Positions 30,764 through 35,884 of a stretch of 42,863 nucleotides of DNA are shown piece after piece. Made by a program: the position numbers and the translations under genes. Within the stretch, counting starts at the first letter, position 1. The number at the start of each line of letters is the position of its first letter. The notes under the pieces are model-generated. The model was not told the DNA's origin, made no database searches, and was given only the letters and a program-made list of their open reading frames with translations. Origin of the DNA: a virus; UHGV virus genome UHGV-0096616; one strand, given 5' to 3'.

Positions 30764-31948
30764 TCATCGTTTTGCTCTCCTGCGTTTCTTTGCTGCTCGT
30801 CTCGCCGCTGCAATACCGGTATGGCGGCGCTTTGGTGCCGGGATGATGTTGTCAGCCATCAGGACATACGGCTTTGCAATTAGCGCAGAATCCCAAACGG
30901 CGCGGATTGCAGCGATGACTTCAGAAACTTTGTATGCCATTACCGTTTGGTAATCATCGTGAAAATCTGTTCGATGAAGCATGCTGCTACGTTCCGGGAG
31001 CGTTATTTCCCGAGCATCCAGTTCCTTAACGCGTTCCTCCAGTTCGTAGACCCTGCATTGCTCTCTATCATCAATCAGATATAACCCAAGACATTCGCTT
31101 TCTACCCAACCGCCAAAATCATGATCGTAACGCTCACATGAAAACTCACCGTCACCGTCCTTTGTTGGAATGGTGTAACTGTCTAATGGGCCACCGTACG
31201 TCGGCACATTTCCTAATGTCGGATGCTCAATCCACATAAAAAATGCACGTCCGGTTATTGGGCAAATATCTGGCCGCCATTGGTTACGAACAGCGTTGGT
31301 TTCTGATAATTCTTCAGCGTGTTGTTTTACTTCCTCAAGCTCAACACGCAGCTTCCCTACCGTAAGCGCAATATCCTCGTTCTCCTGGTCGCGGCGTTTG
31401 ATGTATTGCTGGTTTCTTTCCAGTTCATCCAGCAGCGCCTGCACTACTTCAGGGTTGAAAGCTGCGATATAACGAGCGTTGTTCTCTGCGTTGTTCTGTC
31501 CATCAAAGCCGGTCCATTTGATAACGTCTTCACATCGTTTATCACCAGGTGTATGCACCGCATATGTACCAGTACCAGACGAAATAAATGCGACCCATTC
31601 ACCCTGTGTTGCCAGTTGCGCCGCTTCACGCAATGCCTGATAGTCAATCTTGTTCACTGGTGTCTCCCTTGCAGGGCTTTCGAATGTATCAAACTCAAAC
31701 AACTTAACCACGTCATCAAACAGGACATAATCGCCATCAGGATCTTCAGTCATGTCAGCGCCACAATCCTGACCGAACGAGTCACAACCATCCATATCAA
31801 GCTCGTATCGCTTCAGGTTTGCGATATTTGATAAATTCAGCGCCAGTACAGCTAGGGCATAAACCTCGTCAGCGGTATACCCTGCACCATGTCCATACAT
31901 TTCAATACGGGATATGATTTCTTCTACACGTTGTTTTGTGATCGTCAT
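30764..31948 (-). CDS. Ead/Ea22-like early protein (394 aa)
   Basis: NARYIAAFNPEVVQALLDELERN segment recalled as typical of enterobacterial prophage Ea22-like proteins. Confidence 0.45.
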   Translation of the reverse strand: MTITKQRVEEIISRIEMYGHGAGYTADEVYALAVLALNLSNIANLKRYELDMDGCDSFGQDCGADMTEDPDGDYVLFDDVVKLFEFDTFESPARETPVNKIDYQALREAAQLATQGEWVAFISSGTGTYAVHTPGDKRCEDVIKWTGFDGQNNAENNARYIAAFNPEVVQALLDELERNQQYIKRRDQENEDIALTVGKLRVELEEVKQHAEELSETNAVRNQWRPDICPITGRAFFMWIEHPTLGNVPTYGGPLDSYTIPTKDGDGEFSCERYDHDFGGWVESECLGLYLIDDREQCRVYELEERVKELDAREITLPERSSMLHRTDFHDDYQTVMAYKVSEVIAAIRAVWDSALIAKPYVLMADNIIPAPKRRHTGIAAARRAAKKRRRAKR

Positions 31949-32427
31949 TTTTGCTCATCTCCCTGTTCTTCCAGAAAAATACGCATAGCCTCAAGCATCT
32001 TTTCGGTGTCATACGGAGACAGCTTGTCACGCAGGATGTGTTCAATGCTGTTAATGAACTTGCGGATTGCTTTGCGTTCAATTTCAGCCAGGAAGGCGTC
32101 GGTGGCTGGGGTTTCTGGTGCGTGCATAATTGCTACCAGCATTGCGTCATGCATACAGTCAATGTTGCAACAACCAACTGCTTCTGCTGTTTTAAATTCA
32201 CGATACATGTTGCTGAACGCATCAGTTTTGCACCATGCGTTTATATCCTTAAATGTCGCATTCTCCGCTGCCAGCGCATTAGCACGTACCAGTTGCACTT
32301 CCAGTTGCGTTGCCAAATCGCTGATCAGCTTTGCCACACTGCGCATATCAACGGCACCACATTCTGCTTTCAGTTCCGAAGCCATCTCATGCCCGGCGGC
32401 AACTAACCATTTGATATTACTTTCCAT
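31945..32427 (-). CDS. hypothetical early protein (160 aa)
   Basis: ORF in early operon, overlapping the upstream stop. Confidence 0.45.
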   Translation of the reverse strand: MESNIKWLVAAGHEMASELKAECGAVDMRSVAKLISDLATQLEVQLVRANALAAENATFKDINAWCKTDAFSNMYREFKTAEAVGCCNIDCMHDAMLVAIMHAPETPATDAFLAEIERKAIRKFINSIEHILRDKLSPYDTEKMLEAMRIFLEEQGDEQK

Positions 32428-32488
32428 CTTTACCCTCGCTTATCCACATAACTTATTGATAACATTGATAACTAAAAAGATCGTCGAT

Positions 32489-32833
32489 TCAGAACTCTTC
32501 GATGATCCAGCCACCACCTGCTTTCTTTGGTTTAACAGTTACCCCGATGATTCGGAACGGATACTGATCTGCGGCGACTTTGGTTTTCACCCTGGCGTCG
32601 TCGGTCCAGAAACCTTTCACTTCGTGCAGTTCCATCTCGCCGGTGGCGAGCATCACAGCAAAATCGGGCGTATAGAACGTGTTGTCAGCTAACCGCAGCT
32701 TGATACCCTCAAATCGATACCAGACGATTTCTCCTGCACGTTTACGCAGCTCAAGGTGCTGGCAATACGCAGATTCTGTTTTGTTCATCTGACCTGTTTT
32801 GAGTCGACCAAGAGCCTGTATCTGTTTTCTCAT
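32489..32833 (-). CDS. small PD-(D/E)XK-like nuclease (DUF1064-like, 114 aa)
   Basis: YTPDF...ELHEVKG arrangement (D...E-x-K); operator half-site doubles as RBS. Confidence 0.45.
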   Translation of the reverse strand: MRKQIQALGRLKTGQMNKTESAYCQHLELRKRAGEIVWYRFEGIKLRLADNTFYTPDFAVMLATGEMELHEVKGFWTDDARVKTKVAADQYPFRIIGVTVKPKKAGGGWIIEEF

Positions 32834-32950: not shown

Positions 32951-33751
32951 TTACTTGATAAATCCTGCCGCCTTTCCTCGCCTGTATTCCTCCATCAGCC
33001 ACTGCGCCGGTGTTATTCCACCAAGGGTGGCGGCGTTAGGCATGCACCCGAAACTTCGCCCTGGTGGATGGTAAACGTCTCTCCCTGTGTCCGGAGGTGT
33101 ACTCATGGGTTCTGGCTTTGCCTGTATGCTGATCACCGGATCGGGTATCTGCTGTCCGGAAGCCACCTTTTTCGCCCAATCATCGAGCAGCCTGCGCGCG
33201 TGTTTCTCAACCTCAATCTCGCTAAGCTGGCGCTGATACATTGCACGGCGGGTATCACATACGACCCAGTACATAACCGGATGTCGCCACGGGAATCTTT
33301 CGGGACCACCAGGATATAAACTTTTTTCCTTGCTGTACCGGTTAAACTCCGCCATCACATCGTCAATGGTGACGCCAAGAACCATCTTGCTGTCTTTACA
33401 CCACTTGATGAATTGCCCAGGCGACGGCCAGAACGGAGATTCACTGGCGCGGGCGTGGCGCATACCAGCAGAAACCTGTTCACGGGTTCGGATCCCCCCT
33501 TCGGCAAACGCAGCAATCCACTGCTGTTTTGCAGCGACTTCCTGCTCTGGCGTCTTCAGGTTGGTTACCACTGCCGCCGGAAACAGTTGTTTCAGCTGTT
33601 TGAAAAGGGCATCAACAAGCCTCTCTGCTGACATGTTCACCACATTGTCATTGTTGACGTACTGATGCTCATAACCTGACATGCGAGAAAGGGCTTCTCC
33701 GTCACGGTTTTGTATCGCGGTAAAAACGTTGTTCACAAGAAATCCTCCCAT
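32951..33751 (-). CDS. replication protein P-like (helicase loader), 266 aa
   Basis: Strong resemblance to lambda P as recalled: AGMRHARASESPFWPSPGQFIKWC vs lambda AGMRVARRQNRPFLPSPGQFVAWC, plus flanking conserved blocks. Confidence 0.7.
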   Translation of the reverse strand: MGGFLVNNVFTAIQNRDGEALSRMSGYEHQYVNNDNVVNMSAERLVDALFKQLKQLFPAAVVTNLKTPEQEVAAKQQWIAAFAEGGIRTREQVSAGMRHARASESPFWPSPGQFIKWCKDSKMVLGVTIDDVMAEFNRYSKEKSLYPGGPERFPWRHPVMYWVVCDTRRAMYQRQLSEIEVEKHARRLLDDWAKKVASGQQIPDPVISIQAKPEPMSTPPDTGRDVYHPPGRSFGCMPNAATLGGITPAQWLMEEYRRGKAAGFIK

Positions 33752-34548
33752 GCTTCAGGGCTGTTCCAGTGCGGAACGTTGTTATCAGGTAATGTTGATT
33801 GCTTCTGTCTGCTAATCTGCAGCCGCCTTGCCAGCTTCTGCTCCCACTGTGCCTGATGGTATGCCTTACCCTCAGCCATCCAGTAAATTCTGAACTCTGC
33901 AAGTTCCTGTGCCGTTGGCAGACTGTCCAGGTAGATCCCCTGCAATGAGCTTTTCCGAAGAAAGTCATCTGATGGCTGCCATTGTTCATGCATGACAAAT
34001 TTGCCTAATTGCCCTGGCCCACCAGGAGGAACAAAGTTATTCATCACGGCGTTGTTTGCGCCGGGGTCATGAGGCACAGAACCTCGGGTTTTTGTCCTGC
34101 TCTCCCTCTCTTGGTTAAATGACTGGTTATATGACTGGTTCTGGATCCCGTTTTTGGGATCATTCAACATCCCGTTTTTGGGATCATTCAACATCCCGTT
34201 TTTGGGTATATTCCCGTTTTCGGTAACATTACCGTTTTCGGGTTCATTGCCCCCCTCCCGGTTGCCTTTAATGTTCCCGTTTTTGGTTATATTAAGAGAG
34301 AAAACCCGCACTCTTTTTGTCGCTCCCTTTCTCTCTCCGGTATCTGAAATAAGCCCCATTTTCATGAGCGATATAAGCCCGGCCTGCACGGTTTTTTTAT
34401 TCAGGCAAGTGTCTTTAACGAGGCGTTCTATGCTGGGGTAGCAGAGGTTATATTCATCGGCTCTGTCAGCCATCGAGAGCAGTATGAGCTTTAATGATGA
34501 GCTACCTGGATCTGTCTCCCAGGCCCAATCTGTTGCATGTCTGCTCAT
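33733..34548 (-). CDS. replication initiator O-like protein (271 aa): N-terminal winged-helix, Asn/Gly-rich repeat linker, DnaT-like C-terminal domain
   Basis: Immediately upstream of the P-like gene; contains DNA iterons; domain architecture. Confidence 0.6.
   Translation of the reverse strand: MSRHATDWAWETDPGSSSLKLILLSMADRADEYNLCYPSIERLVKDTCLNKKTVQAGLISLMKMGLISDTGERKGATKRVRVFSLNITKNGNIKGNREGGNEPENGNVTENGNIPKNGMLNDPKNGMLNDPKNGIQNQSYNQSFNQERESRTKTRGSVPHDPGANNAVMNNFVPPGGPGQLGKFVMHEQWQPSDDFLRKSSLQGIYLDSLPTAQELAEFRIYWMAEGKAYHQAQWEQKLARRLQISRQKQSTLPDNNVPHWNSPEAWEDFL
34147..34300. repeat. iteron array, putative origin of replication (about 6 copies of CCCGTTTT(T/C)GG.., two identical 24-bp units)
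   Basis: Tandem repeats with internal dyad (ATCCCgtttttGGGAT) inside the O-like gene, as in lambda ori. Confidence 0.5.
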
Positions 34549-34563
34549 GATTAATCTCCGCTA

Positions 34564-34764
34564 TCAGCTTGAATGTTGTGGGGAGGAATTAATCATGATC
34601 TGCTTAATCTCTGCCCTGATACGACGGTTTGATTCCATGGTGCACTCAACACAGTGTCCGTTGTAAACCCAGCGTTCACTGTCATGTCCGTGCTTACATG
34701 TTTTTCCGGTGTAGTAGCGTTTAAGTCCGCGCTTTGCGGCATCAATACGTGTAATGATTTCCAT
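34564..34764 (-). CDS. small Cys/His-rich hypothetical protein (~66 aa), possible zinc-finger regulator
   Basis: CKHGH...HCVEC motif; between the cro-like and O-like genes; start uncertain. Confidence 0.3.
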   Translation of the reverse strand: MEIITRIDAAKRGLKRYYTGKTCKHGHDSERWVYNGHCVECTMESNRRIRAEIKQIMINSSPQHSS

Positions 34765-34843
34765 GGTAAGCCCTGTTATTAGTATTGGGATTACGGTCAT
34801 TTTGTGCTGACACAAAAAAAAGATCAACCATATTTGGTTTTTT

Positions 34844-34860: not shown

Positions 34861-34914
34861 AATAGATATGAAAAGACCGCCGGGTGGCGGTCTACAGAGG
34901 GTTGTAGCTGGATA

Positions 34915-35145
34915 TCATGAGTAGAAGAAGTATGCCAGTTCTGCTTTTGAGCGCAGCCATTGTCTTGTTTTACAGGCTTTAAAAAGCCCATTCATCAATA
35001 CTTTACCTGGCATTTTGCGCTTACCTGTTAAGTGAGTCTGGATATAGTGACTCGTCGTTCCGGCTTCCTGTGCGAAGGCTTCACGCTCATCCGGAGTAAG
35101 TGCAAGCCAGTGCTTTTTGAAATCGAAATGTCCGTTATCGCTCAT
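34915..35145 (-). CDS. Cro-like small HTH regulator (76 aa)
   Basis: Small basic HTH protein, first gene of the leftward early operon, divergent from the repressor. Confidence 0.5.
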   Translation of the reverse strand: MSDNGHFDFKKHWLALTPDEREAFAQEAGTTSHYIQTHLTGKRKMPGKVLMNGLFKACKTRQWLRSKAELAYFFYS

Positions 35146-35299: not shown

Positions 35300-35884
35300 A
35301 TGAAAAGTATCCAGGACGTCCGCAGGCAAAATCTCAACGACTTGATCGACCGTGAATTCAATGGTGTTCAGACGCGGATGGCTGAAAAACTTGGAACTCA
35401 GGCAAATCTGGTAAACCGCTGGGCTCTTGGTAAGAAGGTTATCGGCGATCAGGTTGCGCGAAAAATTGAAGCTGCCGCCAATAAACCCCGTAACTGGCTT
35501 GATATCGATCGCTCGCTTTCTCAGGAAGGTTTTCAGCCTGTCGGCCCAAGCGACATTGGCCAGCTGGCGGCTCACAACCTGGAACGCTGGATGAGCGAAA
35601 GCCGCGACCTTTCAACACAGGGAAAACTTCACCGCGCATCCGGCGTAGCCCAGGTGACAATCAGCCGCCTGTTAAACAATGAGGTCAGCGTTTCCATTTC
35701 CACCCTGGAGAATGTTGCATCCGCATTCGGGCGTCACGGCTATGAATTACTGATTCACCCGCACGACCCTGCGACCATCAACTATGATCGCTCGCGCTAC
35801 GCATTGTTACCCGAAACCGAGAAAGCAAAGATCGAAAGTTACATTGAATTTGTCATCAACCAGAACGAAAAAAACAAACAATAA
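35300..35884 (+). CDS. CI-like prophage repressor with two HTH domains and no S24 peptidase domain (194 aa)
   Basis: Two XRE-type HTH segments; divergent from cro-like operon; followed by a terminator. Confidence 0.6.
   Translation: MKSIQDVRRQNLNDLIDREFNGVQTRMAEKLGTQANLVNRWALGKKVIGDQVARKIEAAANKPRNWLDIDRSLSQEGFQPVGPSDIGQLAAHNLERWMSESRDLSTQGKLHRASGVAQVTISRLLNNEVSVSISTLENVASAFGRHGYELLIHPHDPATINYDRSRYALLPETEKAKIESYIEFVINQNEKNKQ

Follow-up and report, generated by a model that had tools for sequence, protein, structure and literature searches.

A probable replication origin with phi80-like iterons inside the initiator gene of a phiV10-like prophage

The DNA analyzed here (the window) is the 42,863-nucleotide UHGV virus genome UHGV-0096616, a phiV10-like prophage, and the element in question is an array of short repeats in the middle of its replication initiator gene (Table 1). 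The protein encoded by this gene shares 97–100% identity with the protein named "replication initiation protein" in Escherichia phage phiV10 (genus Uetakevirus) and in phiV10 relatives, and of 5426 complete E. coli genomes, 424 (~8%) had matching genes. Pfam searches placed an HTH_36 domain (PF13730) at residues 18–67 (E = 1.8e-10, 40.9 bits) and a DnaT DNA-binding domain (PF17948) at residues 184–252 (E = 1.1e-15, 57.6 bits), the gathering cut-off being 25 bits for each. The C-terminal domain was likewise recognized when phmmer was run against the PDB, where the E. coli DnaT C-domain entries 9zbt, 6aep and 4ou6 all matched at E values of 1e-19 to 1e-21 (9zbt_D, 6.8e-21; 4ou6, 4e-20). Residues 180–265 align with residues 85–170 of E. 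coli DnaT (primosomal protein i; E = 7e-21), whose N-terminal domain is absent from the window protein. The gene that follows encodes a member of the lambda P family (Pfam PF06992, E = 2.2e-56; 31% identity to lambda P over 203 residues, E = 1e-34). No match to Pfam Phage_rep_O (PF04492) was found in the initiator, whereas lambda O and phi80 gp15 match that family at E values of 6e-36 and 6e-25, respectively. Judged by these domain assignments, the module is O/P-like in layout, yet its initiator is composed of families other than those of lambda O. The original prediction, made from the sequence of the window, had called the protein O-like; the term holds for its architecture and probable function but not for its family.

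Between the HTH_36 and DnaT-like parts of the gene, six copies of a 16-bp core, (A/T)TCCC(A/G)AAAACGG(G/T)A(T/A), were found in register at 34145–34289. They encode residues 87–136, an Asn/Gly-rich linker (...ITKNGNIKGNREGGNEPENGNVTENGNIPKNGMLNDPKNGMLNDPKNGIQ...), so that the predicted number of copies (about six) and their place within the gene both stood. In ascending coordinate, the core starts returned by the repeat search (34145, 34169, 34193, 34211, 34229 and 34274) are 24, 24, 18, 18 and 45 bp apart. The repeating unit had been put at 20–24 bp; the actual units are of 24 and 18 bp, and the two 24-bp copies described as identical are the adjoining units that start at 34145 and 34169. Tandem Repeats Finder recovered both arrays (34145–34206, period 24, 2.6 copies, 100% matches; 34194–34248, period 18, 3.1 copies), together with a third repeat that the original prediction had missed, the 12-mer TGGTTAWATGAC (2.4 copies, 34112–34140). 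When up to two mismatches were allowed, the 13-mer core CCCAAAAACGGGA was found at 8 places in the window (0.94 expected), a count attained by none of 100 shuffles, and six of the eight occurrences fell within 34146–34287. No other substantial tandem array and no second cluster of the iteron motif could be detected anywhere in the 42.9 kb. The dyad that had been ascribed to the units, ATCCC-N6-GGGAT, is perfect in the copies at 34145 and 34169 and one base off in the third; the other three copies are partial. What reads as a decayed iteron lies in the 45-bp gap, and this stretch is the most variable among E. coli relatives (GNREGG, GNLDGC and GNRKGS variants). Candidate intrinsic terminators at 34155–34198 (plus strand) were rejected as hairpins of neighboring iteron half-sites on the non-transcribed strand.

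Table 1. Positions of the replication genes, the iterons and the flanking elements in the window
Feature	Positions	Strand	Basis
Replication initiator gene, 271 residues; functional analogue of lambda O, candidate origin mid-gene	33733..34548	minus	
Coding region of N-terminal winged-helix HTH_36 domain, residues 1–86; presumed iteron-binding module	34291..34548	minus	
Least stable duplex of the gene, upstream edge of array; alternative first-opening site	34265..34308	no strand	nearest-neighbor calculation
Iteron 1, TAACCAAAAACGGGAA; most upstream copy, within the least stable duplex of the gene	34274..34289	minus	
Decayed iteron in the 45-bp gap; right half-site AACCGGGA alone retained	34253..34268	minus	sequence reading
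Iteron 2, AACCCGAAAACGGTAA	34229..34244	minus	
Iteron 3, TTACCGAAAACGGGAA; 15 of 16 bases as in phi80 iteron TTCCCGAAAACGGGAA	34211..34226	minus	
Iteron 4, ATACCCAAAAACGGGAT; near-perfect dyad	34193..34208	minus	
Iteron 5, ATCCCAAAAACGGGAT; perfect 5+5 dyad, within exact 24-bp unit	34169..34184	minus	
Iteron 6, ATCCCAAAAACGGGAT; perfect dyad, last copy, adjoins 12-mer repeats	34145..34160	minus	
12-bp tandem repeats, AACCAGTCATAT / AACCAGTCATTT / AACC..., just after last iteron; candidate DNA-unwinding or second binding element	34112..34140	minus	Tandem Repeats Finder
Purine-rich tract on coding strand, AACCAAGAGAGGGAGAGCAGGACAAAAA; last 20 nucleotides 90% purine; position comparable to that of the purine-rich AT tract in lambda ori	34089..34116	minus	
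Coding region of DnaT-like C-terminal domain, residues 180–265	33754..34011	minus	
Lambda P-family gene, 266 residues, overlaps initiator stop; presumed DnaB-recruiting helicase loader	32951..33751	minus	

One explanation of the array would leave the DNA itself without a role: the repeats would be a by-product of a low-complexity, Asn/Gly-rich linker of PKNG type that changes by slippage, and the origin would lie elsewhere. The window copies are compatible with this, in that all six share one reading frame and encode xPKNGxL-type peptides; a PKNG, PENG or PKIG peptide motif is visible in relatives too, and copy number among E. coli strains varies by whole units, as slippage might produce. Because the window spacings are all multiples of three, any argument from reading frame has to rest on relatives. 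The original prediction had also staked itself on homologous genes carrying such repeats, and related repeats were found directly after the N-terminal domain in all seven phage homologues of that domain examined, which are 35–53% identical (Edwardsiella phage GF-2, Vibrio phage H20, E. coli phage PPompW, Acinetobacter phages AP22 and Ab105-2phi, Burkholderia phage Bcep176, and an EBPR podovirus). A wider sample of 65 bacterial loci (~5 kb each) encoding the N-domain was retrieved from one-genome-per-species contigs using a four-sequence alignment; it covered Enterobacterales, Vibrio, Pseudoalteromonas, Marinomonas, Acinetobacter, Desulfovibrionaceae and sphingomonads. Each whole locus was scanned, blind to the motif, for whichever 12-mer had the highest copy number inside 260 nucleotides (two mismatches allowed), a procedure that recovered the four annotated lambda iterons as a control. 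The top cluster of the locus lay at +240 to +480 nucleotides of the gene in 55 of the 65 loci; this interval makes up 5.6% of a locus, giving a binomial P of 2e-58 that is nominal, since the loci are not phylogenetically independent. Among the ten exceptions, four are short open reading frames of 104–161 residues (L026, L039, L069 and L073), one is truncated by a contig end (L066), and five have more degenerate copies, which could be seen by eye in four (L040, L041, L043 and L063).

In these relatives the arrays behave as DNA elements rather than as peptide repeats, because several frames are used, spacing classes are kept, and the half-sites covary. Adjacent spacings across the family peak at 17–18 and 22–24 bp, 100 of 197 are not divisible by three, and 40 of the 55 arrays span two or more reading frames; the series 17, 17, 17, 22, 22, 22 was obtained both for Bcep176 and for one Desulfovibrionaceae locus. 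Perfect 5+5 dyads were observed 327 times against 133 expected from shuffles, with symmetry retained while both arms change: TCCCAAA/TTTGGGA in Bcep176 and Acinetobacter L022 (GTCCCAAATTTGGGAC, a perfect 16-bp palindrome), GTACC/GGTAC in Acinetobacter L024, GTCGGA/TCCGAC in Sphingobium L051 (GTCGGAAAAATCCGAC) and CCCCGAA/TTCGGGG in Desulfovibrionaceae L068. In GF-2, AAAAAC is replaced by AAAATT, by which Asn becomes Ile and the dyad grows from 5+5 to 7+7 arms (ATCCCAA-AA-TTGGGAT). As far as sequence comparison can tell, compensatory half-site changes of this kind, together with the dyads, are marks of the site of a dimeric DNA-binding protein and not of coding constraint. A two-tier order of spacings was also seen family-wide (L010–L074), with two to four sites 17–18 bp apart followed by two to four sites 22–24 bp apart, always the short class first and the longer toward the AT-rich flank; the window likewise has 18, 18, 24, 24. 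This order may reflect the geometry of the initiator–DNA complex. The linker of the Ab105-2phi homologue (L007, 2292–2345) carries a second kind of repeat besides iteron-type sites, with two CCCAAAAATGG-type sites and four exact 18-bp units, ACCGAAATTGGTACTGGT, that encode TEIGTG repeats.

The repeats go with the N-terminal DNA-binding domain, as three comparisons show. SPN1S and Tyrion, members of the same phage genus, have the DnaT-like C-domain and a linker but other N-domains, and neither has such an array, an absence that a peptide-linker origin of the repeats would not predict. Conversely, the initiator of Edwardsiella phage GF-2 shares 52% identity with the window protein across residues 1–128, and its C-terminal 144 residues share 62% with lambda O; its iterons, ATCCCAAAATTGGGAT, lie at the junction of the two domains, and a P gene is next. 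Finally, HTH_36 was found in 66 of 66 family members and the DnaT domain in only three. Taken with the use of different frames in relatives and the dyads kept while both arms change, this pattern makes it very improbable that the array is a mere consequence of its linker peptide. The downstream partner also varies in the family, being lambda P, DnaB helicase or an IstB/DnaC-like ATPase. Such variety of C-domains and partners, and the GF-2 chimera with its junction at the array, would suit a different explanation, namely that the array serves mainly as a recombination junction for shuffling N- and C-modules between phages and has no origin function. Dyad structure, spacing classes and strict linkage to the N-domain are left unexplained by it, and module exchange at the origin is a known consequence of the lambda design rather than an alternative to it; we regard this as the least credible of the explanations weighed. 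A modular logic in which the origin is tied to the N-domain is classical for lambdoid O proteins (PMC5043065). In the Salmonella phage SPN1S initiator (L076, 1530–2345), a purine (GAAGA)n tract occupies the place in the linker where the window has its iterons, and no P-family gene follows the initiator; with neither iterons nor a following P-family gene, the origin of SPN1S must be organized differently.

The closest known counterparts are the four sites annotated as gp15-binding in phi80, which lie inside gene 15 just after the N-domain (TTCCCGAAAACGGGAA, TTCCCGAAATCAGGAA, TTCCCGAAAACGGTAG and AACCGGAAACGGGAAG). They share the 16-bp core of the window, whose iterons match them at 13–15 of 16 bases, and the E. 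coli variant L079 carries the first phi80 site exactly (TTCCCGAAAACGGGAAT), from which iteron 3 of the window is one base off. An AT-rich tract lies after the phi80 sites, and the next gene, as here, is of the P family. The two systems differ in that phi80 has four sites spaced at 20–21 bp as opposed to six at 18 and 24 bp, and in that gp15 belongs to Pfam Phage_rep_O and has a C-domain of lambda O type. In lambda, too, the origin lies in the middle of the initiator gene and has four dyad iterons, ATCCCTCAAAACGAGGGA and variants, 20–24 bp apart (PMC5043065), with purine-rich DNA downstream on the coding strand and the P gene immediately next. The comparison with the lambda iteron that had been proposed showed a TCCC...AAAAC...GGGA core common to both, the 16-bp window site being 2–3 bp shorter than the 18–19-bp lambda iteron; the proteins differ as well, with Phage_rep_O and its own C-domain in lambda and HTH_36 with a DnaT-like domain here. 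The claim that the window mirrors the lambda origin was thus borne out for in-gene placement and for the P homologue that follows; an equivalent of the 40-bp AT-rich, purine-skewed tract that comes after iteron 4 in lambda (PMC7466680) was not obvious here.

Iteron plasmids (Rep_3-type RepA, pi and RepE) were compared as well. They resemble the window in having arrays of 17–22-bp repeats beside an AT-rich element and winged-helix initiators, but their iterons are direct rather than dyad repeats, placed outside the rep gene and usually accompanied by DnaA boxes. A plasmid-type iteron origin was rejected because the initiator lacks a Rep_3 domain, the array is in-gene, and the nearest DnaA box is ~1.7 kb away. 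Plasmid iterons serve both initiation and control, which leads to a further explanation, in which the window sites are true initiator sites that act in autoregulation, in copy control by titration or handcuffing, or as an operon roadblock, initiation taking place elsewhere. The weak unwinding element beside the array in this phage could be read in that sense. However, no second motif cluster or other tandem array was available in the window to serve as the origin, position and layout copy those of lambda and phi80, whose in-gene iterons are the origin, and AT content in relatives peaks immediately downstream of the last iteron. A purely regulatory role is accordingly judged improbable, if less so than the two explanations dealt with above.

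The flanks of the array were examined for a segment that might open. Just after the last iteron come the 12-bp tandem repeats, of which phiV10 has one more copy than the window; most relatives have two or three copies of a 12-mer with AGAAYC ("ACAGAAYC") at this place. AT content across the family peaks at 0.70 at +40 to +60 nucleotides from the start of the last iteron, over a background of 0.55–0.58. By nearest-neighbor calculation, 30-mers in the least stable segment of the gene, 34265–34308, range from −33.5 to −34.8 kcal/mol, where the mean over the gene is −40.4 (standard deviation, 2.8), and their GC content is 0.33–0.35. No DnaA box was found near the array, and the total of near-matches in the window is at chance level. 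The only perfect DnaA box in the window, TTATCCACA, lies at 32440–32448 (plus strand), ~1.7 kb from the array, just downstream of a DUF1064 gene (32489–32833, minus) and inside the 3' end of an open reading frame at 31945–32427 (minus).

On this evidence, the array at 34145–34289 probably represents the initiator-binding iterons of the vegetative origin of a phiV10-like temperate phage, set in the initiator gene between its domain-coding parts. The prediction of an origin here is supported by the DNA-level behavior of the repeats, their linkage to the N-domain, a core close to that of phi80, and the lambda P homologue. Several observations weigh on the other side. DNA after the last iteron in the window is only 55–65% AT and is without a lambda-like 40-bp AT tract, and the least stable DNA is on the opposite side of the array. 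Perfect dyads occur in only two of the six window copies, which moreover all share one frame, and the 65 loci are phylogenetically clustered, many being from Acinetobacter. BLASTP, used to look for direct homology, returned nothing significant for either lambda O or phi80 gp15 (gp15, E = 23). When the family profile (61 sequences) was compared with lambda O and gp15 by hhalign, the match (P = 6e-4, probability 29%) was suggestive only; it aligns residues 42–85 with lambda O 74–117, the recognition-helix and wing stretch, just ahead of the iterons in both families. Scans of viral contigs with the lambda O and phi80 gp15 N-domains gave near-identical copies only, and a single-sequence AlphaFold model of the initiator had a pLDDT (predicted local distance difference test) of 38. 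No experimental report of binding, opening or origin activity was found for this phage or for family members in the literature searched. Nor was any earlier description of the phiV10 or epsilon15 origin found in that literature, which did not include key older papers, so that an earlier mention is possible; the phiV10 record has annotated terminators but no annotated origin.

By analogy with lambda, we infer the following course of events at such an origin. The early minus-strand operon would be transcribed through the origin and yield the initiator and the P-like protein. Dimers of the HTH_36 winged-helix N-domain would then bind the dyad iterons, the three copies spaced at 24 bp beside the 12-mers being closest to consensus. 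The resulting multi-protein complex would distort the DNA and open an adjacent segment, most likely 34089–34140 with the 12-mers and the purine tract, as in relatives, or alternatively the AT-rich edge at 34265–34308. The DnaT-like C-domains, concentrated by the array, could bind the exposed single strand or form filaments on it, marking the loading site, to which the lambda-P homologue would deliver the host DnaB helicase. The C-domain of DnaT itself forms filaments on single-stranded DNA, marking the place where the helicase is loaded (PMC13377028). DnaT differs in having no sequence-specific DNA-binding domain and in being brought to forks by PriA/PriB, and it acts in replication restart, not at an origin.

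Comparison of E. coli relatives showed the array to be polymorphic in copy number. The gene ranges from 792 to 864 bp, and every difference in length corresponds to whole units: the 24-bp unit is present two to five times, and the 18-bp unit and the 12-mer two or three times each, giving five to eight iterons. Variation in iteron number between close relatives is also known for the Shiga toxin (Stx) phages 933W and P27, which have six iterons against the four of lambda and whose O proteins and iterons are of lambda type; the extra, weakly bound iterons of Stx phages are still needed for replication (PMC7466680). The longest array seen, eight iterons in an 864-bp gene, is that of L082 (NZ_CP076267.1, "pNADC1036guaAphage"), a 38,709-bp circular sequence in which the same phiV10-like genome was deposited as a plasmid of E. 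coli NADC1036. This record may be an excised or replicating phage genome caught by the assembly.

The window thus very probably contains a further member of the lambdoid origin-in-initiator-gene design, with phi80-like iterons, a different domain make-up of the initiator, and a wide, previously unannotated family around it. The design itself is already known and unsurprising here, and the established picture of lambdoid replication is left unchanged. A likely origin is nonetheless pinpointed for a prophage type carried by ~8% of complete E. coli genomes, including the O157 phage phiV10, and a simple, testable rule for annotation follows, namely that a phage initiator whose HTH_36 N-domain is of the present family carries iterons 260–460 nucleotides into its gene, whatever its C-domain or helicase partner. 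Near-identity to the phi80 sites suggests possible replication cross-talk between prophages. A bolder proposal, which we put forward as speculation, is that initiators of two families without evident sequence kinship, the HTH_36 type, widespread in Proteobacteria, and the Phage_rep_O type of lambda and phi80, may read nearly one iteron code, TCCC-(N)AAAAC(N)-GGGA, and that the initiators bound at the array would feed a DnaA-like filament of DnaT domains on single-stranded DNA, which holds the origin open and marks the site of DnaB loading. Were the code shared, both families would trace back to a single ancestral origin module, and replicons of phi80 and phiV10 type residing together could bind or titrate each other's origins. 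DnaA-like working through a DnaT-like domain would be a mechanism undescribed for any phage O-type protein.

Several further features were noted upstream of the replication genes. A small Cys/His-rich open reading frame lies just upstream of the initiator (34564–34827, minus), of 66 residues from the ATG used in phiV10p42 or 87 from an upstream TTG; its CKHGH...CVEC motif resembles a zinc-binding site, and it has no Pfam match. Between this reading frame and a cro-like gene (34915–35145, minus) is a strong terminator-like hairpin at 34874–34893 (minus; eight pairs, six of them G-C, with a T-run), and a terminator is annotated at the equivalent place in phiV10. Since the hairpin is upstream of the replication genes, their expression, and transcription through the origin, may need read-through or antitermination. 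The early operons diverge, with a repressor on the plus strand (35300–35884) and the cro-like and replication genes on the minus strand. Cumulative GC skew has its minimum and changes sign at ~34–36 kb, where the divergent early operons and the candidate origin lie; as this coincides with the switch in gene orientation, the minimum is not independent evidence for an origin.

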